Positions 41,397 to 64,000 of a DNA stretch of 64,000 bases are shown in pieces. The position numbers and the translations under genes were made by a program. The stretch comes from Candidatus Spongiisociaceae bacterium (GTDB taxonomy: Bacteria > Actinomycetota > Acidimicrobiia > Spongiisociales > Spongiisociaceae): positions 480,001 through 544,000 of the forward strand of contig OZ253564.1 of the NCBI GenBank assembly GCA_965262915.1, given 5' to 3'. Numbering within the stretch: position 1 is the stretch's first letter; each line of letters begins with the position of its first letter. A model generated the notes under the pieces. That model did no database searches. It was not told where the DNA came from and worked only from the letters and a program-made list of their open reading frames with translations.

Positions 41397-42913
41397 GCAG
41401 GCATCTCCTTGACCGTCTCCTCAACAAACTCTCGCTCCCCCGCCGTGATGCCGTAGCGCTCGTACAGCGCCTCGTCCGTCCACATGCGGTCCATCGGAAG
41501 GTCCGGAACGAAGGCATACACACCCCGGGCAGCGTCTTGTGTCACCTTGCGCAGCGAGATGAGAAAGCGAACAAATCTAGTCCGAAGATAGGCGGCGAAC
41601 AACTCCGCCTCCTCCTTTGACGGGACCCGTGCTGCGACGATGTATGTTTCGGTGCACGCCTCGCCAGGGCCAGCGATGATCGGCTTGCTCAGGAACATCG
41701 TCTCAACCGCTGCGCTGGTGCCCTGTGCCCTAGTCGTGAGCACTTTCCAGTCGTCCACCCACTCGACGTTCCGCGGGATCTTCGACCGCTCGACCCACGA
41801 GATCCTCCGAGACCCATGCAACTTGACCGGATCGGTCAGACTCTTCGCTGACTTCTTGCCATGGAAGAAGGTCCGTAACCCGAACGGCTTCGCTGCCGAA
41901 ACCTGGGCGTCCAACGTGGGTTCCGGTCTCCCGTCGGGGAGGAACGATCGGACCTTTCGGATTATCGGGACGGCTTCGTTCCGTCGGATGACGATGTCGA
42001 AGTCGTTGAGGCGGCGTTTGACCGACGGCCCCAACATCTTGTCATCCCACATGGTTTGGACCTTGCACGGCCCGTCGTGATCTCGGTCCCAAAGGAAGTA
42101 GGACAGTCCGCCCCGGATCTTCACGCCGGGAATACCGTCGTACAGCTTGGGAAAGTCCACCAAAGTCCGCAGACGACTGTCCGCCATCATCCGGTCTCGG
42201 AACCGGTCGAGTCCCTTTCCTCCTGAAAACCAGCGGGACGGAGTAATCATGACGACATACCGGGGATCCATGTCGATCGCCGCTTCGACGAAGTGATGGT
42301 AGATGGGCGATGCGCTGGGTCCATGTCCGCCGTCGTCGAGCTGATACGGCGGGTTGCCGACAATCACATCAAACTTCATGTCGAACTCCTCCTCCAGCAT
42401 GTCTCGGCCCGCCTCGTGAATGAGCGCGTACGCATGGTTTTCCCCACCGCCCTCGAACTGTGCCTTCTTCGCCGGGCACTCAGAGCACTTCCCTTTCCGG
42501 TAGGCGTGCTCGACCCTACCGAACCACAGGTTCCCCGCTGGAGTGGGCATAGCCACGACCGCCTTGGGGCCGTCAGCTCGTTTCGAGCAGTACAGGGTCC
42601 TACGGGACATCAGTCCGGTAAGTTCGGTGATCGCCACTCCGAACACCATGTTCTTCAGAATGTGATCGAGCCGGTCGCGCTGATCGGGAAGTTCCGGCTC
42701 TAGCCCGACCATGAGCCGCTTGGATATCTCCCGGGGGAACACACCGGTCTTACAGGCGGGGTCAAGCCACCGAACGTTGGGGTCGGTCCAGATGTGTTCG
42801 GGGAGCAAGTCCAACATGGCATCGACCAGCCGGGGAGGTGTGCGCACCTCATCGCTGGACAGGTCGGCAATGACCTCGAGGATGTCAGGCTGGTGACGTC
42901 GGGTCTGCAGCAT
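41393..42913 (-). CDS. Eco57I-type N6-adenine DNA methyltransferase
   Basis: LDPACKTGVF, FDVIVGNPPY, ITPSRWFSGG. Confidence 0.9.
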   Translation of the reverse strand: MLQTRRHQPDILEVIADLSSDEVRTPPRLVDAMLDLLPEHIWTDPNVRWLDPACKTGVFPREISKRLMVGLEPELPDQRDRLDHILKNMVFGVAITELTGLMSRRTLYCSKRADGPKAVVAMPTPAGNLWFGRVEHAYRKGKCSECPAKKAQFEGGGENHAYALIHEAGRDMLEEEFDMKFDVIVGNPPYQLDDGGHGPSASPIYHHFVEAAIDMDPRYVVMITPSRWFSGGKGLDRFRDRMMADSRLRTLVDFPKLYDGIPGVKIRGGLSYFLWDRDHDGPCKVQTMWDDKMLGPSVKRRLNDFDIVIRRNEAVPIIRKVRSFLPDGRPEPTLDAQVSAAKPFGLRTFFHGKKSAKSLTDPVKLHGSRRISWVERSKIPRNVEWVDDWKVLTTRAQGTSAAVETMFLSKPIIAGPGEACTETYIVAARVPSKEEAELFAAYLRTRFVRFLISLRKVTQDAARGVYAFVPDLPMDRMWTDEALYERYGITAGEREFVEETVKEMPA

Positions 42914-43680
42914 CAGCCACCAGCTCCTGTCACCATGAACTGGGCGTCGACGGGAGCCCGGTAAAGATCGACTGCGGGCCCCGACCACTTGACGGGTGGA
43001 CGCTCGTCCATGAAATCGAACAGCGACACTACGCCAGCCCAATCTGCGGCCTGCGGTTTCATCACGGCACCCAGAGTTGTCGTCTCCACGGTCACCTCCC
43101 GGGTATCGGCGTCCCACACGTACTCAACCAGCGGGAGCCGGTTTCTGCCGGTCGGTGTTCCATCCGCGTTCGACTCAAGCATGTTCCCTACTAAGACGTT
43201 CCGGTCCACAATCCAACGAGCAGACCGAACAACAGGCATCCGAGCAGACAGCCTCACACCGAACACCTGCGCCCACCAAGCCCCCAACACTCCCAGCAGC
43301 CGATCCCGCGCCCCGACTTCGTGGCCTGGTGTCCCACCGATGACGTTGTCGGGAGAAATGTCGACGGCGTACACAGAGGCAAGCGCTTCCAGAGCGTGAA
43401 ACGCTCCCGCGGCCTCGCCGGATCCGGCCGCCAGACCGCCGACGACGAGTGCCCCCGAAACGGCTTCGAGCTTGCGGGCGAGGATTGCGACGAGGAAGTT
43501 CCCGTCACCGCAGGCCGGTTCGAGGAACGTGGCGGACGGGTGAATACCCCACACCGTCGAAGGCAGGAGATCAAGCATGTCGGATACGACCCCCGCCGGT
43601 GTGAACACCTCCCCAAGGTCACGCACACGCTCGGTTGACTTGACAAGGCGTTCGCTGCCGGGGAACGACAACACGGTCAT
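42913..43680 (-). CDS. short methyltransferase-like protein (SAM motif, no NPPY seen)
   Basis: RVRDLGEVFTP, FLEPACGDGNFL, YAVDISPDN. Confidence 0.8.
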   Translation of the reverse strand: MTVLSFPGSERLVKSTERVRDLGEVFTPAGVVSDMLDLLPSTVWGIHPSATFLEPACGDGNFLVAILARKLEAVSGALVVGGLAAGSGEAAGAFHALEALASVYAVDISPDNVIGGTPGHEVGARDRLLGVLGAWWAQVFGVRLSARMPVVRSARWIVDRNVLVGNMLESNADGTPTGRNRLPLVEYVWDADTREVTVETTTLGAVMKPQAADWAGVVSLFDFMDERPPVKWSGPAVDLYRAPVDAQFMVTGAGG

Positions 43681-43814
43681 CGCCTCGCCAGTTCTAGTAA
43701 CCGCTGATGCTTCACCGTCGAGCGCAGTAAACGGCACCAGGTGGCCTTGCCGTAACCTGTAATCTCGCTAGCTTCTCGGACCGTCCCAGAGTCATCCCGC
43801 CACCATACCAATGC

Positions 43815-44000
43815 GGCTCTTCGGAAATGAGATGCTTCTATGTCTTACAAAATCGGTTCTGGGGTCGGGTTGGTGAGCCATTGTTGGTATCGACTGGCGA
43901 GTTGGTGGTTGCGGTCGAGGCCGCGTTCAAGTCGTGACAGTACGGTCGCGTGAGCGTCGAGGCGCTCCGTGGCGTGGGTGAGGGGTTATTCGGGCGGTCG
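43815..44000 (-). mobile_element. IS110 3' remnant abutting an ISL3-like inverted repeat
   Basis: TVLSRLERGLDRNHQLASRYQQWL and end ATAGAAGCATC match the IS110 at 62167-63406; GGCTCTTCGGAAAT at 43815. Confidence 0.7.
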
Positions 44001-47100: not shown

Positions 47101-48261
47101 GAACTCGACGAGACGCTCATCTCCCAGCAAGCGTCCGTGCTGAACACCGATCATCTATCCGCGCTGATCCACGCGCTGACAGGTAACGTCTTTCGTCGGC
47201 TGGTAATGCCGGATCAGTACAGAAGGCTGGCGGCGTACCTCACCGACACGGTGATCGGGTATCACCTCGAAGGTGCCCGGAGCGAACCTTGGACCCTTCT
47301 GGGTATGGATGGGCATCCAGCCAGCCTTGACCGACTCAGCGAGCTTCTTAGCGATATCCACGCGGTTGTCAGCGAGCTGGCAACCAATGACACCAACGTT
47401 GCGAATGTATTCAGGAGCGTACGTTCCGGAGGAAAGGGACAAGCGCTCCACCGAGCTGCTCGCACTAGTCGGCGTCAACACCGGCAACGTGTCAGTGCCC
47501 GCTGCCGGGCTTTGCAGAAGGTGTGCGACGCCACAGGCTTGAGCACCAAGGTATTGCATCGCCAACCGGAGCAGACTCCTCTCCTCGAATTCGCCATAAC
47601 CGTCGAACTCGGCTCCCTCGTCGAATGGGAGGACGCGCACTCAACACTGGAAGCAGCCCTAGGACCGAACCGGCCCCCCGCGGAGATCTACCTGCTCGTT
47701 CCGCTCCGGGGTCAAAGGTCAGTACCAAGCCAGGCGATGCAGTTGATCGACTCTCTGTTACATTCGCCGGATCCGGGCGACTGGGCGACCACGGTCTCCG
47801 AACCCGCCCCTAGCGAACTCGCCGACACTTTCAGCGAGGCGCAGGAAGCGCTTCAGGTCCTCTCGGGTATCTGCCACGTCCCAGAAGACCAGCAGACGCA
47901 TCAGACAATTCAGACCGCCGTGGAACAAGCCACGTCCCGATTCCGGAAAGCATACGAAAGGCTTCTCGAACTACCGTCGGATCCACTGATCGACGAACTG
48001 GTAGCAGTTGTTAAAGCTCTGGCAGCACAAGTGCAAGCAGAACTCGACGGGACACATTCCGGCCTGAGCCTCGCTGAGAAAGTCGCTCTCGGCGTATTCC
48101 AAGGTGACCGAACAGAGGAGTTCGACACTATCTTGGGTGCCCGATGCCTGGCCCTAGAGTGGGAAATCGATCCCAAGGCCGCTCTGGCAATGTTCGCTGA
48201 CCTTTCAGAGGCTGCGCGGAAATGTGGGGTGGGTGGGTTGAAATCCTTGGAATGGGGGTGA
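44161..48261 (+). CDS. Cap4-like PD-(D/E)xK nuclease + P-loop NTPase + helical domain (Avs/NLR-like defence protein)
   Basis: GRGFNFQ..EGFED..IQVKS; GPSGVGKS; FLVD; long helical C-terminus. Confidence 0.75.
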   Translation: MVVARRKKKGRRRPSRGPSAPRQQKPVVTVRDSGATAGADAAADGGRSELLFKRWGESRAGARAGRGFNFQNTVGAWLAAQMASSRMAADVLVPEGFEDMSLEGASPLHIQVKSRVQRRDRFPIWEATKHILDAWEKHLSRGKDDSILVVVLERGVKGEENLAGFGRPLADSLSSDSGLRAGLRRAAGARGINSDGMDRLLSCTVVVGVTWEEVTAGTVAELDCLVDLPPSGLGLVERHLRTMVADAADANATTDYEHRRRLSRTELVEEIETTAGLVDISSLEFAVREGICEPLDLTGSVPADDRFYEGTATQPHHVAAGLVVPQPTVMDKILFGLDERSAVVISGPSGVGKSAVLWTVPLALSGVLWYRVRRLADGDVPHLIRLARAYRATRETPVGFLVDAAGTDALGGWARLRAEAATVPGVLLVGTARSEDLITLGDLSDCVRIPIRLDETAAETIFRGLERRGATTVAHWAEAFANSDGLTLEFTHMLTRGRRLHDVISEQVRRRIADKRRHLELEVLSLVSVADRWTVSISTPDLAAACAVTDFELRKATSRLAHEHLVIERDGAMSGLHRLRSTAISDVIHDQPPPDLHSTVRRVLDLVPDSELCRFVANLLRDEPSAKETIINAASSDVPSPGRLVAYLHGLRLSDFHKVARVWKGIADDHRIPESSQALLFYYTAVGVPVPDLLPHEIRAAQEAMNTAPVPTSRDDLVAVVGEKTIAELLALINDVSEATAMFAVLETGTPNLVSAIRQTLNDDSPLVRALDTAPVDQLAELMATARSCDRTVAEHLVGLIGGRDTVLLRVRAHNPWITELEIRAGEDGPVAYGRFLHVSDIVQGNAQEEAVALGQVLLRCLPSIESVDIQALTPGGQEIRIGNRIFGVTHLQRQYDHSLSGIAWNQARIRGALTLVGEADTVRLAKARPLLDQAASLTYEAGTQLVTGTPHNLGPRQLTEQINELHELGQSLGPRRETAELDETLISQQASVLNTDHLSALIHALTGNVFRRLVMPDQYRRLAAYLTDTVIGYHLEGARSEPWTLLGMDGHPASLDRLSELLSDIHAVVSELATNDTNVANVFRSVRSGGKGQALHRAARTSRRQHRQRVSARCRALQKVCDATGLSTKVLHRQPEQTPLLEFAITVELGSLVEWEDAHSTLEAALGPNRPPAEIYLLVPLRGQRSVPSQAMQLIDSLLHSPDPGDWATTVSEPAPSELADTFSEAQEALQVLSGICHVPEDQQTHQTIQTAVEQATSRFRKAYERLLELPSDPLIDELVAVVKALAAQVQAELDGTHSGLSLAEKVALGVFQGDRTEEFDTILGARCLALEWEIDPKAALAMFADLSEAARKCGVGGLKSLEWG

Positions 48262-48550
48262 GGGTTCGCTGGAATCGGTGAGTTACTAAATCGCCGGTCC
48301 AGGGAGCCTCGATGTCTCATGTCATGTCCGTTCGGTTGCACCTGTCGGGTGTTCGCGTGTTGGAGGTGGGGGTCGATTCGGATGGTGGCCGCCATCATGG
48401 GGTGGGGATGGCATCGGATCATGGGCTTGGTGAGAGTTCACTCGGCTTTGGTGGCGGAGCGTCACCGGGCCCGGCCGTGTCGTGTGCTGCTGGTAGACGA
48501 AACATCGATCCGGCGCCGGTGTCGGTATGTGACCGTGGTGGCCTGCGGTG
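48209..48550 (+). mobile_element. internally deleted ISL3 remnant
   Basis: Closely similar to 63407-64000 with deletions (LHLSGVRV..HHGVGWHRIMGLVR..LLVDETSI). Confidence 0.85.
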
Positions 48551-48551
48551 A

Positions 48552-48704
48552 CGCACAGCCATGTATTGGGTCACTAGGTATGATTATCCCGCCCGGCTGG
48601 GAAGGTAATCGTAAATCCGTGTGGACATGCGGCCCGTGTACGGATAGCGACATATCACCGGCCAGTACTGGAACTCCGGCGTTGGAGTGGAAGATGACCG
48701 TCAA
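48552..48704 (-). pseudogene. truncated N-terminal gene fragment
   Basis: MTVIFHSNAGVPVLAGDMSLS, cut by the ISL3 remnant. Confidence 0.35.
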
Positions 48705-48785
48705 TTGGTTAGCCTCACCTTAACCTAGAACTAACTCCACGAGTCGGCTAGGAAGCGCCGCCGACGCTCGATCCCGCTCAGTTCG

Positions 48786-49741
48786 TCATTCGCCACCGAA
48801 AACTACACGCACCGGCTCCCCGACACCACCGGACCCCCGGGTAACGACGGCTCGGGTCATACTCTGCGGTGAGCGGCCACCGCTTCGATACCCGGCCGTA
48901 CATACCGATCCAGGGCTGCGCAGGCTCCAGTGGCGGCTTTTCGCCTTCAGCAGCGGTGCTCCTACTCCCCTCTCCCCCAGGTGGGTGAGCGCAGAGTGGC
49001 GCAGCTGGTGCAGCGTCCAACCCCGACGCGTCGCGGAACAGCGCCCAAGCCTGCTGATACGACAGCCTCCCCCGACCGGTGTCGAGACATAGGTCTGGAA
49101 GCGCTGGCGCCTGGTTGGGCCGGCGGTGAGTGACGAACACCGGACCCCGACGACGGCCGCCCAGATAACGGGGCAGCAGGCGGGCGGTTCCCGAAGCCCA
49201 CACGACTTCTCGGCGGTGGCCGCCTTTGCCCCTGACCACAGCCTTCCTGGCTCCGAGGTCGAGGTCCTCGACGTTGAGGGCCAGTATCTCGTTAGCACGG
49301 GCCGCTGTTTCGTACGGCATTCCTCCACAGGGTCTTCTCACGTACGTGAACATCCGGCCGGGTCCACAGGGTGTGCTGCTGCTCGTAGCGGATCGGCGCG
49401 GTGTCGTCGCGCACCTGTGGGCGGCGTTCTATCCCCGCCAACGGATCCTCGGTTATCCAACCTTGTGCCTGTACCCAGCGGCGGAACGACCCCACCGCGG
49501 TGAGACGGTTGTTCCACGTCGCCGACGAAGCATCACCCCAGTGATCCTCAAGTACGCGGCGTACCCGCTCGGCGGTGAACCCGTCGAGGGCGAGGTCAGA
49601 GCCGAGGTCCCCGACCACGGCTCCGAGGGTGTGGGCGTAGCTGCGACGGCCTTTGGCCGATAGCGGTTTGGCCGCCAGTAACTGCTCGACGGCTCGGCCT
49701 AGGGAGGGGACACGGTGTGGGAGGGCTAGGACTTCGGGCAC
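48786..49741 (-). pseudogene. tyrosine recombinase (XerC/TnpI-like), frameshifted
   Basis: Three frames stitch to SAM-like N-terminus, YETAARANEIL, GKGG, WTLHQLRHSALTH, SRH. Confidence 0.85.
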
Positions 49742-49830
49742 CGTATCAGCGGTTACCAGAGATATCCGACAGGGTTCACAGGGGTGGAGGCTACCCGAAC
49801 CGCCTGCATGATCGGGGTAACGGTCGGCTG

Positions 49831-49863
49831 TTACGAGAGATACTCCGCCAGTATCTCTAGTAA
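49831..49863. other. loxP-like recombination site 1 (13-7-13)
   Basis: TTACGAGAGATAC-TCCGCCA-GTATCTCTAGTAA, arms 12/13 complementary; extra half-site TTACCAGAGATAT near 49753. Confidence 0.75.
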
Positions 49864-49926
49864 GGCACAGGCACAGCGCTCCTCCCTATTCTGAGCCGTA
49901 ACCGACGAACCGAGCCAATGCTGGCG

Positions 49927-50232
49927 TCAGTGCGCCGGAGCCAGATTGACCGTGACCGTCATATCGATAGCTGCCGCGGCCTTGTGGAGAGTCGTGAGCG
50001 TGGCGCTCGTGCCGCCGGCCTCAAGGCGGGCAACCGCCGCCTGGCTCGTCGACATGCGAGCGGCAAGGTCGCGCTGTGTCAGCCCCGCGGCTTCTCGCGT
50101 GTCGCGTACCTTCTCCCCCACCTCCATAGCCAGACGAGCCACAGCAAGGGCCGCGTCGAACTCGGCACGCTCGTTGACGCTCATCGTGTTGAGCCGTCTC
50201 TGTCGCAACTCTTCAAACGTTGGGCGCGCCAT
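49927..50232 (-). CDS. HigA-like XRE antitoxin
   Basis: GLTQRDLAARMSTSQAAVARLEAG. Confidence 0.88.
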   Translation of the reverse strand: MARPTFEELRQRRLNTMSVNERAEFDAALAVARLAMEVGEKVRDTREAAGLTQRDLAARMSTSQAAVARLEAGGTSATLTTLHKAAAAIDMTVTVNLAPAH

Positions 50233-50570
50233 CATTCCTCCTCAGGTGAGTGTCCCTCAGCGATGCACCGCCGAATCAACCCCGAGCCCGCCGGACTTCG
50301 GCCCGCTCGTTCTGCCTCTGCTTGCGAAAACGTCGTCAACAGAATAATCCGCCGGTCTTCCGCGAAGTAGAACGTGACCCGTCGCGCGACGCGGCCGAGG
50401 CCGACCCGAAGCTCGAACAGCCCATCGCCCAACGACCGCGATGCCGGGAACCGCAGACGGCTGCCATCCTCGGCGAGTCGTTCGACCGCCGCCGCCACCG
50501 TCGCGAACTCTCCCACGGAAAGCGACTCGATCCATTGCTCAACTTCCGGCTCGACCTCCACCAACCACAT
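50232..50570 (-). CDS. HigB/Gp49-like RelE toxin
   Basis: LGDGLFELRV..RVTFYF..IILLTTF; C-terminus appears to carry two compensating frameshifts. Confidence 0.85.
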   Translation of the reverse strand: MWLVEVEPEVEQWIESLSVGEFATVAAAVERLAEDGSRLRFPASRSLGDGLFELRVGLGRVARRVTFYFAEDRRIILLTTFSQAEAERAGRSPAGSGLIRRCIAEGHSPEEE

Positions 50571-50848
50571 GACATCAAACGCCGACGCCCCGAAGCCAGC
50601 GACGACACGAATTGCGAACGGGAACCCCTAACCGGACAGCCCCACTACCCCACCCAAACGCCGCCGGAGCCAGGATGGGCTACGAGCAGCTGAACAGCAG
50701 GCTAAGAACCCACGGGCATGTTCGAGGTTTCGTTCCACCGCTACCAGAGACACTCGGCCAATATATCTCCACTTGGATGACGGGCCATGAACAGCAGTCT
50801 TGGGAAGGTAGGGTGCGGCGCCTGGGCTCGCTACGGAAACGGCGTTGG

Positions 50849-51781
50849 CTACCAGTCCTCGGTCTCAACGAACAGCGGCGCGTACCGGTAGACGGCTGCG
50901 AACTCCTGCGCATCCCTAGCCGGGATCCCTGCTACGGATGCGGCTTCTCTAACCTTGTCGCGTGTATCCGGTATCGCGCTTAGGAGGTGTTGTACCTCGC
51001 GGCGGGTGAGACGAGGTATCTTGATCTGGCAAGGTTCTTCGCCGGACCGAGTGAACTCGAGGGTTCCTATCCTGCATTTGTCCCACTGGTGGCGGTCGAC
51101 TTCGGCGACGAGAGCACCGCCAACCGTGAGCATTTGCGCTCCGTCGGCGTGGACCATATGGAACATTTGATGGAACGTGATGTGTTTTTCTTTGGGACGT
51201 GCCGCGTTCCGTGAGCCGAGCGCTGCTCTGATTTGTTCCCGCAATATCCGATACGAGAACTGTGCGTATTCGGCCCTTGTACGCGGTTCCGACCGGCCGT
51301 CTCCGACCTCGCTTAGCCAGCCCTCCCGTTGATCATCAGGGGGCCGTTCGGCGTTGATAGTGACTATCAGCACGCTTGCCGAAGCGCATCGTCCTACGGC
51401 CTCTTCTATATCGGAGAGCACGCCCTTGTTGACTCGGCTCTCGTAGTCAAGCCATACGATGTGCGGACGGTTCTCAAGTCCTATCTGTGGTAACGCATCG
51501 CCAGTCCTCTTCATTACTACTTCGATACACGCTAGCGGCAGGTTGAACCTGACGCGGTCTTCAGCCCGTGGGTCGCCCTCGATGGTGATCATGTCGCAGA
51601 TCCCGAGCCGACGGTGGACGACCTGGAAGTCGCGAAAGTAGGTTGACCCCATCCCAACGTACCGGTATTTGTCAACGGGCATGAGCGGAGTTAGCCGGGC
51701 TAGAGCCTCGACGATCATCCGGCGCGACGTTGCTTTCGCAGGGCGGAGGGAATAGTCGACCTTCGGTCGGAAGGGTGGCAT
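50849..51781 (-). CDS. putative O-methyltransferase-like protein
   Basis: DYSLRPAK, YRYVGMGS.YF.DF, IVWLDY, ADGAQMLTVGG, YRYAP. Confidence 0.75.
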   Translation of the reverse strand: MPPFRPKVDYSLRPAKATSRRMIVEALARLTPLMPVDKYRYVGMGSTYFRDFQVVHRRLGICDMITIEGDPRAEDRVRFNLPLACIEVVMKRTGDALPQIGLENRPHIVWLDYESRVNKGVLSDIEEAVGRCASASVLIVTINAERPPDDQREGWLSEVGDGRSEPRTRAEYAQFSYRILREQIRAALGSRNAARPKEKHITFHQMFHMVHADGAQMLTVGGALVAEVDRHQWDKCRIGTLEFTRSGEEPCQIKIPRLTRREVQHLLSAIPDTRDKVREAASVAGIPARDAQEFAAVYRYAPLFVETEDW

Positions 51782-51788
51782 ACCGGTC

Positions 51789-53129
51789 TCAGCTGATTTC
51801 GTCGGCATACAGCCGCTCGAATGCCTCTTCCCCGATCTGCCGGTTCGTGGTGAGGTGAAGAGCTTTCTTGAGTTCGTTCACGCGGGAAATATCTGCCGGG
51901 AACTGGATGCTGGTCGTCCGCGGGCGGGCTTGAATGGTCCGTAGTGTGTCCCGAGACCGCTCAGGTACTCGGAATCGGCCAATCGGCACGTCGCTGACCG
52001 GCGTGGGTTGCGCCATCATCAGCGCTGTCCGAACGGCTTGCTGCATCTTGCCGTCGCTCTCCTCGAACTGATGCCGTTCTATGACCAGCTCGTTGGTGAA
52101 AGTCGCGAATTGGCGGAGGACGGAACGCATCTTGCCTAGAGCATTCCTGTAGACGTCCGAAGAGGCGTCGATTTCAGTCTTTGTCGTCGTCCACGGTAGC
52201 GCGGCCGGAGAATCGGAAGCAAAGAACACAAAACCCCGAAACCGCGCGTATTGCGGATGCCACGCTGGCACATCGGGTCCGTCGAGCCCGGCCGTGCCCC
52301 AGCCGGTAAGTCCTGTGCGATCAGCCTTCAGCACAAGGCGGCCGTTGCAGTAAACGTACCAACCGGATTCGGCAACCGACCTCCGCTTCAGACCGATGCC
52401 AGCGATGATTCGTAAGTTGACGCTCTGATCCCCGGACAAGAGCACCGCGCTCTGGTTTTCGGGCCGTATCCCTCCGCCTACAAGAAGTTTATGTATGCGC
52501 TGGTCCGCCGGTTCCATGTTCAGTGAGATCGTCAGTCCCGCCTTGATCGCCTCGCCGTGCCTATCCGCGACATCGTGCAGCATCCTGCGTACGTAGCCGT
52601 CGTCGGCGAATGACTCACTCACGCCCTCGTGCAGATTCTTCACTTCGACCGTCGTACCTGCTTCGTCGGCTGGGGTATCGATGATCTCCATCGGAAACGT
52701 CCAGTCGCCCTCCTGCTCGCGCCACTGCCCGACATCCAATCCAACAACGAACCGAGTATGGGTTGTCGACGAGTCGACCTCGAAGTTGCGCCCGAGGCGA
52801 AAGACGGCCCGTTTCATCCCGATCCCGAACTCGCCTATCCGCGTTGTCGGATTGAACCCCGGCGCCCGGCCGAACCTGAACGCGTAGTGCCGGGCCGTGT
52901 CGATGTCAATGCCCCTACAGTTATCGCTGATCTTGAAGTGATCCCGATCAAGTATCACATTTATGTAAAAGTCGTCAAGGCCCCCGCCCGGCGTGCGGTG
53001 CGCGTAGGCAGCGTCGACAGCGTTGTCGATCAGGTCCAGGATCGCTCCGTCAATACCAATGTCCCGCACCAGCATGTCGACAAAGAATCCTCTCGTCGCA
53101 CTCGCGTCGGCCGTGGATCGTGTCGTCAT
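51789..53129 (-). CDS. GHKL (MORC/HATPase_c_3) ATPase with S5-like domain
   Basis: DLIDNAVDA, DNCRGI, GEFGIGMKRA, GWYVYCNGR, LPWTTTK. Confidence 0.85.
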   Translation of the reverse strand: MTTRSTADASATRGFFVDMLVRDIGIDGAILDLIDNAVDAAYAHRTPGGGLDDFYINVILDRDHFKISDNCRGIDIDTARHYAFRFGRAPGFNPTTRIGEFGIGMKRAVFRLGRNFEVDSSTTHTRFVVGLDVGQWREQEGDWTFPMEIIDTPADEAGTTVEVKNLHEGVSESFADDGYVRRMLHDVADRHGEAIKAGLTISLNMEPADQRIHKLLVGGGIRPENQSAVLLSGDQSVNLRIIAGIGLKRRSVAESGWYVYCNGRLVLKADRTGLTGWGTAGLDGPDVPAWHPQYARFRGFVFFASDSPAALPWTTTKTEIDASSDVYRNALGKMRSVLRQFATFTNELVIERHQFEESDGKMQQAVRTALMMAQPTPVSDVPIGRFRVPERSRDTLRTIQARPRTTSIQFPADISRVNELKKALHLTTNRQIGEEAFERLYADEIS

Positions 53130-54220
53130 GGGCCAGCAGCCTCGTTCTCGTCTACCGCACGCCACACCGCGGCCGCCACCGCGCGGGCGAGCAACGGGGG
53201 CACGGCGTTGCCCACTTGCATATAGCCACTCCACTTGGTGTGGTCAACCCAGAACCAGTCGGGCATGGACTGGAACCGCCGCGGCCTCACGCACCGTGAT
53301 GACACGAGGAAAGGCATGTGGATCGGTCTCGGCGCCGTTTGGCTACCGCGGCCTGGCAACGTACCAGCGCGGATAGTGGGCGCCGGCCGGTCCGGGTGCA
53401 ACCTCAAGAAGCGGCTGATCGGCTCCGGAGTACCCGGACTCACTGATCGGAACCGCTCCTCCACAGCAGGCGCTTGCCTGACGCGGTCGCAGCCCGTGAG
53501 AGCTCCAGGGAGCGCCCGCGGACGCGCTCTGTCACCATCGTCCGGCGCATCGCCGCCGGAGCCGCAAAGCGTAGGAACTGGCCTGCCCAAGCGCGCCGTC
53601 ATGCTCCCCGTACAGTCCAAGCCGGCAGTTCTCAAGCAGCTCAAGATCACCAATTGCATCCCGCCGCCGGTCGGCGTCGCCGCGCCGGACTCCTGCGGCG
53701 CCTTGGGTAGCGGCAGTCCGCTCCGAGCGCCCACCATAAACACTCGTCGCCGACGCTGCGGAACGCCGAAGTCTGCAGCATTGAGCAACCACGGCTTGCC
53801 CAACTCGTAGCCCGCTCGCCTCATATCGCGATCGAACCCCTCGGCGATCCCCCGTGCCCCGGGCAAAAGGATGCCAGGAACGTTCTCCATGACGAAGTAG
53901 CGCGGGCTGGCCTCGCGGACGAGGCGGCCGAACTCTTTTGCCAGTCCGCCGGCGATCATCATCCTGCCGCCTGAGCCCACCGACCGAGAACGCAGCGCAA
54001 GGAGGCCCTCCGATCAGCACAGTGCAGGAGCGTAGACCCGCGGCGCAAAAACTCTGGCGTCGGCGGCGAGCACAGCCGCGTCGGGAAAGTTTCGAGCGTA
54101 GGCCCTAATAGCCCGCTCATCGCTGTCCACACCGAGGGCGGGCACGAAGCCCGCCTGCTCGAAGCCGAGCGAGAAACCGCCAGCGCCAGCGAACAAACCG
54201 ATGACGGTCGTATGCTCCAT
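53126..54220 (-). pseudogene. dcm: C5-cytosine DNA methyltransferase, multiply frameshifted
   Basis: LFAGAGG, GGPPC, MENVPG, GVPQRRRR, QVGNAVPP spread over several frames. Confidence 0.88.
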
Positions 54221-54281
54221 CGGAAACAACACTACCCGCTGTCCCCCCAGCCGCCTGCATAATCCCGGTATCACCTTCGCG

Positions 54282-54314
54282 TTGCCAGAGATACTCCGCC
54301 AATATCTCTACTTT
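54282..54314. other. loxP-like recombination site 2 (direct repeat of site 1)
   Basis: TTGCCAGAGATAC-TCCGCCA-ATATCTCTACTTT; same spacer and shared upstream CCGCCTGCAT(G/A)ATC. Confidence 0.7.
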
Positions 54315-54529
54315 GGCGGCGGGCCCCTGAGTACGTCCGAACGAGCCGTCGGATCGTTAACCAACATAAGCCAAGCGGCTGGAAGCCGATTAACGGGCCG
54401 GGTGTTCCCCCCAAAGGGTGGGGAAGGCGCGTTGGTGGTATACTGGTGGGGCTGTGGGCAGTAGCCTGCGGAAGCGGGGTTCGGTACCTCTCCGGACGGT
54501 GAGTGGCCGGACTTTCGCGCGTCTGGGGG

Positions 54530-55024
54530 TCAGCGTTGGTCAACGTCGCGGACGTATTCGAGGATGTCGCTGATTCGGGACCGCCAGTTGCGCTGGGCTC
54601 CGTATGACCACGCTACGGCGTCGGCTACCCATAGCAGGGGTTCCTCGTAGCCTGATAGGTGTTGGTAGGACAGAGCGGCTGGTGCGTTACCGGCGCGGAT
54701 GGCCGCCGCGATCTGGCGGCGTTCTTGGGTGTCTTGGCCGGTTTCTCGCCGTTCGATGACGATCCGTCCTATGTCGGTGTTCCCCGAGTCGCTCAGTATC
54801 GCCGCCAGGGCCTGCCGGCGAGCGAGGGGCTCTTTTTTGGTTGAGGTGTACACCCGGGCGCGGACGGGGAGTTTGGACATCGCTGCGAGCAGCCCCCGAC
54901 GGCGGCGGGCGCTCTCGTTGACGAAGTGCAGCCGCCGTTGGCCTGGCATCAGCAGGGCTCGTAGTCCCACCCGGACGGCGGGTAGGTCACCGGGGTTGAC
55001 CAAGACCACACAGACCAGATAGAG
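54530..55024 (-). pseudogene. DUF3800-like protein, N-terminus removed by IS30
   Basis: LMPGQRRLHF, EPLLWVADAVAW. Confidence 0.55.
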
Positions 55025-56476
55025 CCCGGGTTCAAGGGGTCGTTGCAACACTGCCTTGTTGGAGGGAGTGTAGGTGCTCGTTGAGGGTCTCGGCGGGGGT
55101 CTTCCAGTTGAGGGTTTTGCGGGGTCGGCTGTTGAGTGCTGCAGCGACGGCGTCGAGGTCGTTGCGTGAGTGTCTGTGGAGGTCGGTGCCTTTGGGGAAG
55201 TATTGGCGTAGGAGGCCGTTGGTGTTCTCGTTGGTTCCGCGCTGCCATGGACTCTGCGGGTCGCAGAAGTAGATGTCGAGGTTGGTGTCTGTGCGGAGCT
55301 GGGCGTGTTGTGCCATTTCGACTCCTTGGTCCCAGGTCAGCGAGCGGCGGAGCTGTTGGGGCAGGGTGATGATCGACGCAGCGATAGCGTCTCGTACGGC
55401 TTGGGCGCCGTGGCCGGCGAGAGGGGGCCCGTTGTGGACCCGTTGCTGTTTTCGGTGGCCTGGCATGGGTGGGAGGTGCAGCAGCATCGTGAACCGGGTG
55501 GTCCGCTCCACCAGTGTTCCGATCGCAGAACTGTGGAGTCCGATGATCAGGTCGCCTTCCCAGTGGCCTGGCACTGCCCGGTCGTCGGCCTCGGCGGGGC
55601 GTTGGGTGATCATGATCTCGGGAGCAACGAACGTCTTGCGTCGCCTCCGGGTTCGTGCCCTGGGGACCCGCAACGCTCGCCCGGTCCGCAAACAAGCCAC
55701 CAACTCGCGTTTGAGCGCACCCCTGCCTTGCACATAAAGCGCCTGGTAGATCGCTTCGTGGGAGATTCTCATCGACTCATTATCGGGGAAATCGACCCGG
55801 AGCCGGTTCGAGATCTGCTCAGGGCTCCACGACGTTGCCCACCGTCGATCCTTTCGGGGCCCATGACGGCGACCGACCCAGCGCACCTGGGGGCCTGGCA
55901 CCAGCTCACCATCGGGGCGGGCGATAACGCCACCGAGACGATCTTGGACGTACCGGCGAAGCTTGTCGTTCTCAGCGAGCTTCGCCACCTTCGGACGGCA
56001 GGCACGCCGATCCGAATGCCACTGCGCGGTCGTGGCCCGATACTCCAGGCCTCCGCTACGGGTTGCGGCGTTGCGGCGCAACTCACGTGAGATCGTCGAC
56101 GCACACCGACCCAGGCGGCGGGCGATCTCACGCACCCCACAGTCGCGGGCGTGGAGAACCGCGATCTCTTCCCGCTCAACAAAAGATAAATAGCGTCCCG
56201 AAACAGGGACGAAAGAAAATGGGACCATCCCACCATTCTCGCGGAACCAACGCGAACCAACCGCGGGCGACACACCAGCCGCCACACCGGCATCCTCGCT
56301 CGACAACCCACCAGCGATCCCTTCCCAAAACCGCTCCCGATGCTCACGCCGCCCGACCGGCGGACGACCAGGCGACCGCATCGCCGGCCGCAACGCACGA
56401 TCAGCCCTACGAACCTTCCTTGCTCCCATTGCAACTCCTCACTCTCGAGACGTTGCGACGACCGTTTGAATCCACC
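55025..56476 (-). mobile_element. IS30-family element, copy 1 (transposase 55032-56429)
   Basis: GHWEGDLI, LTWDQG, PWQRGTNENTNGLLRQYFPK; IRs GGTTCAAGGGGTCGTTGCAAC / GATTCAAACGGTCGTCGCAAC. Confidence 0.95.
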
Positions 56477-56812
56477 CAATATCTGTCCATTCGCTACACG
56501 AACCGGCTGGCGGAAGCCGGCATCGAGCCATCGGTCGGCTCGGTTGGGGATTCGTACGATAACGCCCTCGCCGAATCCGTCATCGGTCTGTACAAGACAG
56601 AACTCATCCACAAACGCGCTCCGTGGAAGGACCTCGACCAGGTCGAGTACGCCACCCTCGAATACGTGGACTGGTTCAACCACCGCCGGCTTCTCGAACC
56701 CATCGGAGACATCCCACCAGCAGAAAAGGAGGCCAACTACCATCGTCAACAGGAACGAGTCCAGCTAGCTGGACTCAAGTAAAACACTCTCCGGCAAACC
56801 CGGTACGGTTCA
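56477..56812 (+). mobile_element. IS3-family 3' fragment with right IR
   Basis: [27 protein letters not shown]; ends CGGTTCA. Confidence 0.9.
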
Positions 56813-57060: not shown

Positions 57061-57323
57061 AACATCCCCTCCGCCCACAACTCGGGTACTTCCGGGAGTA
57101 CCTCAGGGAAAAGAAGCAACAACAAGCCCCTGGACCGTAGATCTCAGACAACTACGGATCCAGGCGCTACATGTAGATCTTGCCCTGAGACTTGAGCTAT
57201 TCGGATCTGCTGCCGCGGGCGGCCACAGGACCGGCGTGTCTGCAACTCGGGGTCTTCGCGTGTTGTGGGCTGTTGAGTTCGCGGGTTAGGGGTGTTGGCG
57301 GGGATTCTGGCCTATTTCAGTAG

Positions 57324-57671
57324 TCAGCCCAGTTCAGCGATCAAGGTAGCCACTTCTTCCCGCAGAACCGGTATTCCGTCCTGTAGGTTGTGCCACAGTT
57401 CTGTCCAGTCCCGCGTGAACAGCCGGTGGGACATCACGTTGCGAGACCCGATGAGCGACCTGCGGCCGGTTATCCGGTGCCTGTAGTCGGGGAACTTGGT
57501 CGTCATCTGGTTGACCGCTTCGCCGATGTCGTGGTTCCATGCGAAGGCGCGGTCCTGCGCGTCGGTGTCGTTCAGGAACTCTTCCAAGGTCATGCCCGCT
57601 AGCAGGCTCGCTGCCTGTTCGCATCTACGGCCGATCAGGTCTAGGTAGGCGCGGGGGTCAGGGACGGGCAT
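57324..57671 (-). CDS. HepT-like (DUF86/HEPN) toxin
   Basis: IGEAV, RNVMSH RxxxxH motif. Confidence 0.85.
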   Translation of the reverse strand: MPVPDPRAYLDLIGRRCEQAASLLAGMTLEEFLNDTDAQDRAFAWNHDIGEAVNQMTTKFPDYRHRITGRRSLIGSRNVMSHRLFTRDWTELWHNLQDGIPVLREEVATLIAELG

Positions 57672-58089
57672 ACAGTTCGACTTTGGTGGCGTCCACCGAC
57701 GCTTGGAAATACTTGTTGTCGATGAACTTGTAGGAGCCTATGTCGATCTGTTCGCGGCCTTCGGTTTCGGTGAGCCACCCGTCGAAAACGTCTCGGAGGG
57801 CGGCCCGGAGCGCACGGTAGTTGACCGGATACGCCGACCCGGGACGGGTTGGGGGTCCGAACGGGCAGTGTTCGGAAGGTCCGTCGTAGGCCATGCCCGC
57901 TCCCGGCGCGAACACGACCATGAAATCCAAGTCTGATAGTCGGGGCTGATAGTCGGGGCTGACAGCCGACCCGTACAGCCACAGCCGGTCCACGTGGAAC
58001 TGTTCGCACGCTGCCCGTATCTGCGGCAGCCGGTCGCGGACGAAACGGGGAAGACGCGGCGTGAACGGAACATCGACAGTGACAGCCAT
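57658..58089 (-). CDS. MNT nucleotidyltransferase antitoxin
   Basis: LWLYGSA..SDLDF; NKYFQASV. Confidence 0.85.
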   Translation of the reverse strand: MAVTVDVPFTPRLPRFVRDRLPQIRAACEQFHVDRLWLYGSAVSPDYQPRLSDLDFMVVFAPGAGMAYDGPSEHCPFGPPTRPGSAYPVNYRALRAALRDVFDGWLTETEGREQIDIGSYKFIDNKYFQASVDATKVELYARP

Positions 58090-58409
58090 AACCCCGCCCA
58101 TTCTACCAGCCGACAGGTCGGAGAAGGGTCTTGTGGCAGCGGGTCAGAGGGGCCTGTCGGGGCTGCAGACGGACCATCATGCACCGAGGCCGCTACATCC
58201 CGGACGGCGGGGCGGTATCGCTCTCTCAGAGCAGCAGCGGGGGTCTCAGCCCCGCTAGGAGATATGCGCTGTTCGGCCGGGCCGAACCGGACCGTCCCCG
58301 GGTTCGACACCACACCGGACGGCAGTCCCAATGATGATCCCAGTCGCCGTCCGGGGACCGGCGCGGGATACCGAGCTTCGAGAGGGGGGCTGCCCAGCAG
58401 TTGCTGTTG

Positions 58410-58655
58410 AGCCCACCGGCGCGGGCATAGGTGATCAGCTTCCCGAGGTGGCCATGGTCGGTCGTCTCCAAGAGGTTCTCCACGACGACTCGCTGGCTCG
58501 TGTTCGTGTCCCGAAGAACCAGGTCCGCGGAGAACGTCCCGACGGGGACTTCTTCGCCTTCGAGCTCAAGGTCCATCTGGAGTTCCTTGCCAAGCAGGTT
58601 TGGGTTGGGCGCGAGCCACGGTGTGAAGTCTCGGGCTTCGTCCCGCCACACCGAC
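58410..58655 (-). pseudogene. DUF4268-associated endonuclease N-terminal fragment
   Basis: WRDEARDFTPWL..VGTFSADL..VEN..TDHGHLGKLITYA. Confidence 0.75.
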
Positions 58656-58658
58656 CGA

Positions 58659-58994
58659 TGAACCGTACCGGGTTTGCCGGAGAGTGTTTTACTTGAGTCC
58701 AGCTAGCTGGACTCGCTTTTGTTGACGATGGTAGTTGTCCTCCCTTTCTGCTGGTGGGATGTTCCCTATTGGTTCGAGGAGTCGACGGTGGTTGAACCAG
58801 TCCACGTACTCGAGGGTGGCGTACTCGACCTGGTCCTGGTCCTTCCATGGTCCCCTCTGTCGGATGAGTTCGGCCTTGTAGAAGCCGATGACTGATTCGG
58901 CCAGGGCGTTGTCGTAGGAGTCTCCGACTGATCCGACCGACGGTGAGATGCCGGCTTCCGCCAGCCGCATGCTGTAGCGGATGGACAGGTATTG
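58659..58994 (-). mobile_element. IS3-family 3' fragment with right IR (inverted)
   Basis: QYLSIRYS..DNALAES; IR TGAACCGTACCG at 58659. Confidence 0.9.
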
Positions 58995-60784
<1,790 letters not shown>

Positions 60785-60971
60785 AACTGGCACATCTCCA
60801 AGGTAACCAACGGACCCACCGAAGCGCTCAACAACCTAATCAAACGGATCAAACGAGCAGCGTTCGGGTTCCGCAACTTCGCGAACTACCGAATACGGGC
60901 ACTCCTCTACGCCGGAAAACCCAACTGGGACCTACTCGCGACCGTCACTCCCCACTAAAACGCGATGAGCC
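60785..60971 (+). mobile_element. ISL3 3' fragment with right end
   Basis: TNGPTEALNNLIKRIKRAAFGFRNFANYRIRALLY; ends CGCGATGAGCC. Confidence 0.88.
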
Positions 60972-61116
60972 TGTTTCCCCAGGTAGATGGCGGTTTCCGG
61001 CGGTCGGCGGCCGGTGGCGTGCATAACACGGTCGAATATACGACGGTTACTACTGGTCAACGATGGTCAGCAGAGACCCGGCTAGTAGACGATCTCCCGC
61101 GTACCGTGAACCCCCT

Positions 61117-61284
61117 ATGAGCAGAGTCCGTCCCCCAGGGCGCCCACCACCCACATATCCCCCCGGCCGCTACTGCACCACCGACAGCTGCACGGCGCGC
61201 CTATCCATCTACAACCCGACCGACCACTGCGGCCTCCACTCCCCCCGCCGACACCCACACAAACGGAACCGCCGAGGCTGGTGA
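61117..61284 (+). CDS. small Cys/His (Zn-binding-like) protein
   Basis: GRYCTTDSCTARLSIYNPTDHCGLH; conserved paralog at ~36090. Confidence 0.6.
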   Translation: MSRVRPPGRPPPTYPPGRYCTTDSCTARLSIYNPTDHCGLHSPRRHPHKRNRRGW

Positions 61285-61866
61285 GACTATCGGGCGGGTA
61301 GCCGCTGTCGGCGGCCGGTCGAGCCTCCCGAGTCCTTTCAGAGGTTGGGAATACGGCAGTAGGTGGGAGGGGCCGTTACGTGGGGGGAAACGGCCCGAGG
61401 TTCCCGGGCCCAGAACGCTGCTCTACCCGCGGGCTCGCCGGATGCGGGACACCATCGACCACCACTCCCGATCCGCCACCGGCGCGTCTTTACCCACCAG
61501 CACCCGCAGCGACACAAGCAAGAGCCGATATTGGGTGACCACCATTAGGCTGCCCCTCGTCGAGACCATACCAACCGACACGAGCCCCCAGCGGAAGGGT
61601 GCTCCGCTGCCGCCACCCGGCGAACAGCCATGGAACCGGGTTCCCCAGCACGCCGTTGGTGGCTCTCCCCCTCGAGGGGTTTCGGACGGAAACGACCCCG
61701 AAACCGTCCCAAACCGGCCCTAAGATCGTTAACTAACATAACGCAAAGGGCTGGGAGCCGTTTTGCGGGCTGGGAGAACCCTGCCATGAGCCGGGGAGGC
61801 TTGGCCGTCCTGGTTTGTGTCTTCTTTTCTTGGGCGTCGGCGGGTGGGCCTGTCGGGGGTGTCCAT

Positions 61867-61916
61867 GCCCTGCCATGCCGCGCCGAGCCCAGCCACGCCA
61901 CGCCCAGCCAAGCCGC
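61867..61916 (+). repeat. GCCNN pentanucleotide tandem repeat
   Basis: GCCCT GCCAT GCCGC GCCGA GCCCA GCCAC GCCAC GCCCA GCCAA GCCGC. Confidence 0.75.
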
Positions 61917-62166
61917 GAAGAAGGTTGGCCCTGCGCGAAAACACTCATACTTATAGGGTTTCCGGTTGGGGCCGGGTCTGACTCACGCGAAAACTGGCCT
62001 TTGGTGCCTTTCCCACGATCTGTCGACCTGGCCCCGGCTAGGAACCCTGAACCGGGGAGCGGGGTGACTTGATAGGAGCCTTCGACTTCTCCACCGTGAG
62101 TGTTCTGTCCGCCGCTCTGCCCGGCTCCGGGGGTTGGATTCTAGGCAGCCGACGAAAGGCGAGCAC

Positions 62167-63399
62167 ATGGCGGAGCAAGTTAGGGCCGATGGGGTAGGTG
62201 TGGTTGGCGGGGTGGACACACATCGGGATTTCCACGTTGGGGCGGTGGTGGATGGCGCGGGTCGCCTGTTGGGATCCGATCAGTTCGGCGCTGATACCTC
62301 CGGTTATGCCCAACTGGTCGCCTGGATGGAGTCGTGGGGTCGGATCACACGGGTCGGGGTGGAAGGAACGGGCAGCTACGGCGCTGGGCTCACACGTCAT
62401 CTTGCCGAGGCGGGTATCGGTGTGGTGGAGGTGAACCGTCCCAACCGCCAGCTTCGCCGGCGGCGGGGCAAGGATGACACCACCGACGCCGAAGCAGCAG
62501 CCCGGGCTGCTCTCAACGGTGAAGCGACCGCCCTACCCAAGACGGGCGACGGACCGGTAGAAGCCACCAGGATGCTGCGGGTAGTTCGCCGCTCCGCGGT
62601 CAAAGCCCGCACCCAGGCCGCCAACCAGCTGCACGCTCTGGTAGTAACCGCTCCTGAGCAGGTCAAACACCAACTCCGGGATCTCCCGACCCGGACACAG
62701 GTCAAGGTCTGTGCCCGCTTCCGTCCGGGCACAGCGCAGACCACTGCGGCATACGCCAAGCGGGCACTGCGGCTTCTAGCCCGCCGATACCAGAATCTAG
62801 ACACCGAGATCACACAGGTCGACAAACAGATCCGCGGTCTCTGCGCACGGGCCAACCCTGCGTTGCTGGCCGCCTACGGAGTAGGACCCGACACCGCCGC
62901 TGCTCTGCTGGTCGCTGCTGGTGACAACCCACGACGTATGAACTCAGAAGCAGCCTTCGCGGCCCTCTGCGGTGTCAGCCCCGTAGCCGCATCATCGGGA
63001 CGGATAGTGCGGCACCGTCTCAACCGAGGCGGCAACCGCCAAGCAAACAACGCGCTATGGCGGATCGCTACCAACCGAATGCGCACCGACGCTGCCACCA
63101 AAGAATATGTCACCAGACGCGAAGCGGAAGGAAAAACCCACACCGAAATAATCCGCTGCCTGAAACGCCACATCGCCCGCGAGATATACCACCTCCTCAC
63201 CGACCCGCCCCCAACACCCCACGGAACCGACCTACGCCACCGCCGAACCCAAGCCCGAATCACCCTCACCCGCGCCGCCCACCACCTCGACACGCAGCCC
63301 ACCGTCCTATCACAACTCGAACGAGGCCTCCACCACAACCACCACCTCGCTACCCGATACCAACACTGGCTCACCCAACAACCGATTTGCAAAACATAG
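62167..63399 (+). CDS. IS110 recombinase with C-terminal XRE-like HTH
   Basis: GGVDTH, VEGTGSYG, KDDTTDA, ASSG, GGNRQAN; tail ITLTRAAHHL..VLSQLERG. Confidence 0.93.
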   Translation: MAEQVRADGVGVVGGVDTHRDFHVGAVVDGAGRLLGSDQFGADTSGYAQLVAWMESWGRITRVGVEGTGSYGAGLTRHLAEAGIGVVEVNRPNRQLRRRRGKDDTTDAEAAARAALNGEATALPKTGDGPVEATRMLRVVRRSAVKARTQAANQLHALVVTAPEQVKHQLRDLPTRTQVKVCARFRPGTAQTTAAYAKRALRLLARRYQNLDTEITQVDKQIRGLCARANPALLAAYGVGPDTAAALLVAAGDNPRRMNSEAAFAALCGVSPVAASSGRIVRHRLNRGGNRQANNALWRIATNRMRTDAATKEYVTRREAEGKTHTEIIRCLKRHIAREIYHLLTDPPPTPHGTDLRHRRTQARITLTRAAHHLDTQPTVLSQLERGLHHNHHLATRYQHWLTQQPICKT

Positions 63400-63498
63400 G
63401 AGCATCGTGGGTTGGGTGGGGTGAAATCCTTGGAATGGGGGTGAGGCCCCGCTGGAATCGGTGAATAGCCAACATCGCCGATCCAGGGAGAGGCCTCG

Positions 63499-64000
63499 AT
63501 GTCTGATGTTATGCAAGTACGGCTGCACCTGTCGGGTGTTCGCGTGATGAGAGTGCTGGTCGACTCTGTTGAGCGTCTTGAGGTTGAAGTCGAATCGGCT
63601 CGGGAGTGGTCGCGGTGCCGCCATTGCGGGTTCCGCTGCTATCGGGTGTGGGACCGACGGCCCAAGAGGGTTCGTGACCTGGGGGTGAGCGGCCGCCGCA
63701 CCACGCTGGTGTGGCGGCGACGCCGGTTCGAATGTGGGAACTGTGGCGAGCGGCACCTCGAGGACCACGACCAGTTCGAAGCTGGCCTAACCCGCCGGTT
63801 CGCCCGTCGCCTGGTGGCGGATGCAACGGTGATGTCGATTCGGGCAGCGTCCCGCCATCATGGGGTGGGGTGGCATCGGATCATGGGCCTTGTCCGCGCG
63901 GAGGCGGCTCAGGTGGCGCAGCGTCGCCGGGCCCGGCCGTGTCGTGTGCTGTTGGTCGACGAAACGTCGATACGGCGCCGTCACCGGTATGTGACCGTGG
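63499..64000 (+). CDS. ISL3 transposase (5' part, runs off window)
   Basis: CRHCG..VRDL..RRRFECGNC, LLVDETS. Confidence 0.9.
   Translation, partial: MSDVMQVRLHLSGVRVMRVLVDSVERLEVEVESAREWSRCRHCGFRCYRVWDRRPKRVRDLGVSGRRTTLVWRRRRFECGNCGERHLEDHDQFEAGLTRRFARRLVADATVMSIRAASRHHGVGWHRIMGLVRAEAAQVAQRRRARPCRVLLVDETSIRRRHRYVTV

Follow-up and report, generated by a model that had tools for sequence, protein, structure and literature searches.

A 64,000-nucleotide (nt) stretch of a genome labeled Candidatus Spongiisociaceae (contig OZ253564.1, positions 480,001 to 544,000; referred to here as the window; genome size, 5.06 Mb) contains a tyrosine recombinase pseudogene, a palindromic recombination site beside it (site A), and two further copies of that site (B and C) that bound blocks of toxin-antitoxin (TA) and defense-like genes. 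This locus is probably a decayed resolution module of the Tn3 type, in which the extra site cores mark the joining of passenger blocks by the resolvase. The site belongs to a family with copies elsewhere in the genome and upstream of homologous recombinases, relatives of the recombinase reside in Tn3-family transposons, the local copy has decayed, and the flanks of the site copies are reassorted at the core; we infer that crossovers at the core built the array.

The recombination site and its recombinase family

Site A (49831-49863) consists of two 13-nt arms (49831-49843 and 49851-49863), complementary at 12 of 13 positions, around a 7-nt spacer, TCCGCCA (49844-49850). Site C (54282-54314; arms 54282-54294 and 54302-54314) is a direct copy that is identical to A at 31 of 37 positions and has the same spacer (54295-54301), but the inversion of its arms is limited to the inner 8 nt (7/8 match) rather than extending over 13. 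An initial annotation, made from the sequence of the window, had described a 13-7-13 repeat at 49831 and 54282; the direct orientation and the identical spacer stand, whereas the length of the inverted arms does not hold for C. It had also noted sequence common to both sites on their upstream side, which amounts to 26 nt that are 81% alike (49794-49819 versus 54245-54270), and a half-site near the recombinase start, which is present at 49752-49765 and is followed by a conserved box reaching to 49779. Half-site and box are kept in paralogues and homologues, with the accessory half-site retained in the recombinase-proximal copies of this genome, in complete transposons, and in actinobacterial plasmids. 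Overlooked was a third direct copy, site B (50741-50773), located between higB and the Methyltransf_35 gene, the core of which has three mismatches, one of them within the spacer (TCGGCCA). The 4.45-kb interval reported between the two sites is therefore real but is split in two by B, into a higBA block of 910 bp (A to B) and a 3541-bp block (B to C) containing the Methyltransf_35, GHKL ATPase, and dcm genes. Using the 23-nt core as a query, three matches with no more than three mismatches were found in the window, compared with none in 100 shuffles. No tRNA or known RNA was found at the sites.

The site had been presented as a local pair, but it is not private to the locus. The strict core occurs nine times in the genome, the reversed control pattern does not occur, and a profile search identified 10 full site copies plus partial ones. 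Five site copies adjoin recombinase sequence, with approximately 250 nt in common on that side, including the half-site; sites B, C, 4378364, and 466492 comprise only some 45 to 55 nt of inner flank and the core. The recombinase protein gave 26 matches in the genome, most of them to fragments. Its paralogues include one that is close and intact (4930990-4931895), one with a stop codon, and three that are intact at 48 to 52% identity. The core beside the sole intact close paralogue (4931962-4932016) is 2 nt shorter between the arms, a form that was also observed in another genome of the genus (L038:9879-9937).

The recombinase belongs to a Xer-like family of approximately 300 amino acids (aa), with 2796 matches at E ≤ 0.001 among 8000 scored candidates; members occur in marine and soil metagenomes, actinobacterial plasmids, and metagenome-assembled genomes (MAGs). 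All six catalytic residues (R-K-H-R-H-Y) were invariant in a 20-member alignment that included the intact paralogue, and the closest solved structure is that of XerD (1a0p; E, 2.6e-18). In homologues ranging from 85% to approximately 45% identity, a half-site adjoins the gene upstream of its start codon, and about 65 nt further out comes the palindromic core, which has a spacer of 7 nt and arm sequences that co-vary with the recombinase protein. This layout was found at seven of nine loci from other genomes as well as upstream of the 48%-identical paralogue. From the analysis of metagenomic loci it was found that 40 of 71 carry a 10-7-10 palindrome with at least 7/8 inner matches, shuffled loci giving no extra ones (a further nine of the 80 loci were excluded from this count, eight lacking the N terminus and one having too little upstream DNA). 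Judging by this conservation, the palindrome is the recombinase's own site and a family trait. The initial annotation had made the same assignment and had named a palindrome upstream of homologous recombinases as the thing to look for, and it is there.

A 73%-identical intact recombinase with a site of the same spacer class was identified beside an AbiEii-like gene on a MAG contig assigned to Acidobacteriota (L032), a different phylum, which suggests transfer between phyla. Recombinases of small actinobacterial plasmids are also related, as 132 plasmid records encode proteins that are 42 to 46% identical. The same half-site occurs upstream of the recombinase gene of pFAJ2600, where the half-site alone was viewed, and a Nocardia plasmid has both half-site and core in this position. 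Unlike the array in the window, the plasmid recombinases carry single sites. The pFAJ2600 gene is reportedly named PmrA, with a putative role in multimer resolution (De Mot et al. 1997).

Link to Tn3-family transposons and decay of the module

At three metagenomic loci (L047, L056, and L077), a Tn3-family transposase (DDE_Tnp_Tn3 plus DUF4158) is encoded divergently from the recombinase, across the core. Overall, such a transposase lies beside the recombinase at 19 of the 80 loci, and at 11 of the 29 with at least 3 kb of upstream sequence. Paired terminal inverted repeats of approximately 40 nt bound transposons of 6.5 to 13.6 kb at L047, L048, L052, L056, and L077, which share the order end, transposase, core, half-site, recombinase, passengers, end. 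The transposon-borne homologues are 60 to 63% identical to the window recombinase.

In the TnpI site, exchange occurs at an inverted core, and selectivity for resolution comes from accessory motifs that lie in direct orientation toward the gene, as described in parts of PMC2847244 and PMC7157771; the former also reports that sites reduced to the core allow relaxed recombination within and between molecules. The locus shares with TnpI of Tn4430 a tyrosine recombinase gene with the site directly upstream, an inverted exchange core with a direct accessory motif on the gene side, and relatives carried by Tn3-family transposons that have terminal repeats and encode a DDE_Tnp_Tn3 transposase. It differs in having one recognized accessory motif rather than DR1 and DR2, a 7-nt gap between 8-nt arm motifs as opposed to the 14-bp motifs of Tn4430, and, in relatives, a transposase divergent from the recombinase rather than colinear with it; the window copy, moreover, is a pseudogene with no surrounding transposon and with two extra core-only copies of the site. 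By analogy, the recombinase is expected to work like TnpI and its site like an internal resolution site. The comparison with TnpI in the initial annotation was thus apt, as relatives adjoin Tn3-family transposases in complete transposons.

The recombinase gene in the window is split, with the Pfam domains Phage_integrase and Phage_int_SAM_1 located on two overlapping open reading frames (ORFs). Relative to the intact paralogue it has four frame-breaking indels, three +1 insertions and one -2 deletion, and its catalytic positions are encoded only across the frameshifts. Contigs from public runs, probably of the source sample, cover 48234-49207 and 50499-54310 without a difference, so that the frame breaks are not errors peculiar to this assembly. 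In the genome, one Tn3 transposase fragment was identified by Pfam profile and a few more by tblastn, and transposon-end repeats were located at more than 10 places, none of these within the window. No transposase remnants were found directly to the right of the nine cores. The window module is thus an orphan with a broken reading frame, from which the transposase and the transposon ends have probably been lost.

Under the reading that we favor, the recombinase gene and site A would be the resolution module of a Tn3-family transposon, that is, a TnpI-like tyrosine resolvase with its internal resolution site, whose task would be the splitting of cointegrates by recombining two direct site copies. 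The transposase gene, which in intact relatives starts just beyond the core, would have disappeared along with the transposon ends, and the resolvase would have been broken. The higBA pair would occupy the place usual for TA genes in the Tn3 family, against the crossover site. Sites B and C would be the marks of past resolvase crossovers that joined blocks from different site-bearing molecules, namely, the TA block, the dcm/GHKL/Methyltransf_35 block, and the orf173 block, and a cognate enzyme acting in trans would be expected to delete the sequence from A to C. The initial annotation had proposed a capture and excision system, in place of which we read a cointegrate-resolution module without transposase, ends, or intact frame.

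Extra cores and the origin of the passenger blocks

Left- and right-flank classes reassort at the core among the nine site copies. The left flank of site A is 0.96 identical to that of site 466492 and its right flank is 0.82 identical to that of site 2898916, while site 4383578 has a left flank 0.92 identical to that of 4378364 and an unrelated right flank. Homology among the recombinase paralogues ends within 5 to 25 nt of the core. A second array in the genome (4378289-4383850) begins with a recombinase remnant, a site, a three-gene PIN_3/HTH_17 module, and a partial transposon end, and continues with a GmrSD-type gene, a hybrid half-site, orf199, and a full site, after which a glutamate dehydrogenase gene follows. 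The orf199 block at this second locus lies between direct repeats of 86 nt, and at the left junction of the block homology begins inside the spacer, beside the left arm of another site class. The orf199/orf173 block also follows site C in the window, where it is cut by an IS30-like insertion, at which homology to the full-length orf199 stops (~55023). Together, the reassorted flanks and the junction inside the spacer point to past crossovers at the core.

These junctions also bear on two other possible origins of B and C. Each of the three sites lies 67 to 180 nt upstream of a leftward gene start, B and C retain the flank that precedes the recombinase without the accessory motif, and Tn3-family resolution sites contain resolvase-regulated promoters according to the available part of PMC7157771, all of which would suit promoter or operator duplicates copied ahead of higBA and dcm through ordinary duplication or through homologous exchange, with no role in crossover. 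We consider this improbable, given that the flank classes reassort exactly at the core and the orf199 junction breaks inside the spacer; a simple scan found no consensus promoter in the sites, which is weak evidence in this phylum and uninformative by itself. Alternatively, each core could be all that remains of an independent transposon or plasmid copy inserted nearby, whose resolvase gene was later overwritten by cargo through unrelated deletions and insertions. The genome is indeed rich in decayed copies, as seen in the fragmentary recombinase matches and the numerous remnants of transposases and terminal repeats, insertion sequences (IS) abound in the region, and the inner flank of C is closest to recombinase-proximal sites elsewhere. 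Such an origin would, however, require two or three independent deletions to end within ~12 nt, just inside the accessory motif, and no recombinase or transposase remnant was found beside B or C, leaving it with little probability.

Tyrosine recombinases need matching spacers for exchange. As A and C share a spacer, an active cognate enzyme should remove 4451 bp in the form of a circle with both blocks on it, and to this extent the excision from direct sites foreseen in the initial annotation is what the spacers predict. The spacer of B differs by one base, so that exchange with A or C should be disfavored. Resolution sites in direct repeat should not be stable in the presence of the resolvase, according to the part of PMC13367494 available, and the survival of direct sites in the window agrees with the dead local resolvase gene. 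Whether the sole intact close paralogue could act in trans is uncertain, given that its core is shorter by 2 nt. The lack of a working local enzyme and the mismatched spacer of B imply that the array is frozen; we infer that it may still be excisable today.

The higBA block fits a pattern known from Tn3-family elements, in which TA pairs, including those of Gp49 with HTH_37 and those with PIN_3, are an integral part of transposition modules and lie against the crossover site, usually directly upstream of the resolvase gene, and how they were acquired is described as unclear (Lima-Mendez et al. 2020, PMC7157771, as far as the source was available). In the window, the genes for a Gp49 toxin and a helix-turn-helix (HTH) antitoxin abut the crossover site just upstream of the recombinase gene, and the PIN_3 module has the equivalent position at the second locus. 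The TA pair in the window differs in being bracketed by two direct cores, an arrangement that the available part of PMC7157771 does not mention. A narrow literature search on duplicated Tn3-family resolution sites returned only papers on TIME elements, and core-bracketed TA pairs may still be in print. The unit of recombinase, A, higBA, and B was also identified at two loci of a sister genome, one copy being internally deleted and the other enlarged by 4.5 kb of inserted DNA with a SIR2-domain gene, and site B is kept beside higB at L033/L046 and L028/L036. The presence of the unit at two sister-genome loci indicates that the TA block was inherited rather than recently captured. The SIR2_2-domain protein of L033 (L033:4505-8104; 1199 aa) is encoded directly beyond the core, at the place of the transposase in intact transposons, and over its first ~30 codons it is similar to the beginning of a short ORF found at the second locus of the present genome. 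Elsewhere in this genome, a 1321-bp insertion (2898964-2900284) with a 351-aa ORF lacking a Pfam match sits precisely between the right flank of a site and a higA remnant, and it may be an unrecognized IS.

The block between B and C has a GC content of 58 to 60%, compared with 64% for the genome, and was absent from the 40 relatives searched, bar one weak match of 52 nt. Using PADLOC, a match was obtained for the methylase alone (MTase_II and others), and the GHKL and Methyltransf_35 proteins had none. The GHKL ATPase may be linked to the MutL/MORC-like ATPases of restriction systems. A role in defense is probable for the dcm/GHKL/Methyltransf_35 operon. The combination of GHKL and Methyltransf_35 genes with dcm close by is found again on the plasmid pSymA of Sinorhizobium meliloti (1579052-1589846). 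Within this stretch, which is unannotated in the record, the GHKL and Methyltransf_35 homologues are adjacent, the latter interrupted by approximately 2.8 kb, and the dcm homologue is 3 kb away. It is plausible that the defense block was captured through a core crossover, which would agree with the pattern of the flanks.

A third alternative is an integron-like platform, on which the recombinase, with its full site, would capture promoter-bearing circular cassettes that have core-only sites and so build arrays of TA and defense genes. As in integrons, a tyrosine recombinase lies beside a primary site, and direct secondary sites bound blocks of genes, TA pairs among them: three sites lie in direct orientation to one side of the recombinase gene, the cargo is a TA pair and a defense-like operon, the second array carries the PIN_3 module, GmrSD, and orf199, and the orf173/orf199 block has different neighbors in the two arrays. 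Two-site loci were also found at L033/L046, L028/L036, and L085, and intermolecular recombination between core-only TnpI sites, as reported in the part of PMC2847244 available, would be in line with this. We nevertheless judge such a platform unlikely. The sites are short double-stranded 8-7-8 palindromes rather than folded attC sites, and they lie upstream of genes read towards the recombinase, not downstream of promoterless cassettes read outward as attC sites do; the genes also differ in their orientation with respect to the site. The recombinase scores 66.8 bits against the NCBIfam XerA/integron integrase model, far below the cut-off of 220, and thus lacks an integron-type signature. Arrays are exceptional in this recombinase family, having been seen only in one genus plus one soil contig, and the documented context of the family is the Tn3 transposon. 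A single site was present in 39 of the 40 metagenomic relatives with a clear site, the exception being L085, where two site copies surround a TPR gene. The claim of a capture platform in the initial annotation is further weakened by the inheritance of the A-higBA-B unit, which represents no fresh capture, by the SIR2 insertion, which has no distal core, and by the fact that TA genes beside a resolution site are already known, as stated in the part of PMC7157771 available.

The pdif sites of Acinetobacter plasmids, used by XerC/D, alternate in orientation. The sites described here are all direct and have an 8-7-8 core, and the recombinase is dedicated and element encoded. The likeness to pdif modules lies in blocks, TA pairs among them, that are bounded by Xer-type sites and are thought to move by site-specific recombination (PMC7399989, PMC5790767, in the parts available).

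A bolder version of our preferred reading, that core-only site copies define mobile blocks and that a relaxed, accessory-free resolvase inserts or swaps circles of promoter, core, and cargo at the crossover point, is a possibility to which we give less than even weight.

Several observations weigh against the reading of a decayed Tn3-type module with crossover scars. Neither a Tn3-family transposase (Pfam profile and tblastn) nor a transposon terminal repeat was found in the window, so the Tn3 origin rests on homologues of 60 to 63% identity and on the transposase and terminal-repeat remnants scattered elsewhere in the genome. A transposase accompanies a minority of the relatives, as counted above, and the others are stand-alone or plasmid borne, so a plasmid resolution system is an equally possible ancestor of the module. 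The best curated model matches of the recombinase are XerC and XerD, far below their cut-offs. Single sites prevail among the relatives, higBA paralogues elsewhere in the genome lack sites, and the SIR2 insertion at L033 begins at the core and has no distal core; not all cargo is core bounded. As B and C are upstream of operons read towards the recombinase, they may share a promoter or operator role. Lastly, no contig from the public runs shows a deletion or circle joint between any two of the sites A, B, and C, although contigs drop rare forms and this is uninformative either way.

Gene content, surroundings, and implications

The features of the locus are listed in Table 1. The genes placed between the sites by the initial annotation (dcm, GHKL, a methyltransferase-like gene, and higBA) were all recovered by Pfam. 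The frame of dcm changes twice within approximately 30 codons (53940-54230), leaving only the stretch with the catalytic cysteine out of frame.

Table 1. Sites, genes, and remnants at the probable resolution module in the window
Feature	Position	Strand	Basis or remark
Tyrosine recombinase pseudogene (TnpI-like resolvase, Xer-like fold)	48778..49741	-	Pfam, paralogue alignment
Putative accessory half-site (single arm-like motif, direct) and conserved box	49752..49779	+	Adjoins recombinase start
Site A: ~40 nt of conserved inner flank and core	49794..49863	+	23-nt core 49836-49858, spacer 49844-49850
higA-type antitoxin (HTH_3 / HTH_31 / HTH_37)	49927..50235	-	Pfam; ~90% identical copies beside same site in sister genome
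higB-type toxin (Gp49, PF05973)	50232..50570	-	Pfam
Site B: inner flank and degenerate core	50692..50773	+	Core 50746-50768, without accessory half-site
Methyltransf_35 (PF20553) protein, full length	50849..51808	-	E 7e-80, 304/309 profile positions
GHKL ATPase (HATPase_c_3)	51789..53234	-	Pfam
dcm (C-5 cytosine methylase, DNA_methylase) pseudogene	53126..54220	-	Two frameshifts
Site C: inner flank and core	54245..54314	+	Core 54287-54309, spacer same as A, without accessory half-site
Right-flank class common to second locus, and orf173 (unknown gene, 5' end cut)	54310..55023	-	93% identical to block bounded by two site copies at second locus
IS30-like transposase, insertion ends array	55032..56429	-	Pfam HTH_38 and rve

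A candidate fourth site past the IS30-like element (56476-56494) was rejected, as it is the terminal sequence of another multicopy IS. Just 3' of the recombinase pseudogene, a repeat of approximately 340 nt (48207-48552), represented in the genome by 15 or more copies that are 75 to 91% identical, spans the end of a 1366-aa ORF encoding a STAND-like NTPase. Both flanks of the locus (41400-44000 and 57200-64000) consist of multicopy IS and repeats that are common across the genus, and these interrupted the synteny with sister genomes in which an empty-site allele of the locus was sought. The neighborhood of the locus is plastic and dense in IS.

The local copy is a dead relic, and its direct biological importance in this genome is consequently small. 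The wider interest lies in the family, as a large and barely annotated group of ~300-aa "XerD-like integrases" is tied to Tn3-type resolution modules and supplied with a site layout. If the extra cores are crossover scars, they would offer a concrete mechanism for passengers that sit exactly at the resolution site, and defense genes would travel in the same way as TA pairs. Should the cores in addition delimit mobile blocks, the stretches A-higBA-B and B-defense-C would be frozen examples of them, and blocks of this kind would explain the repeated gain of TA and defense genes by Tn3-family elements at the resolution site.

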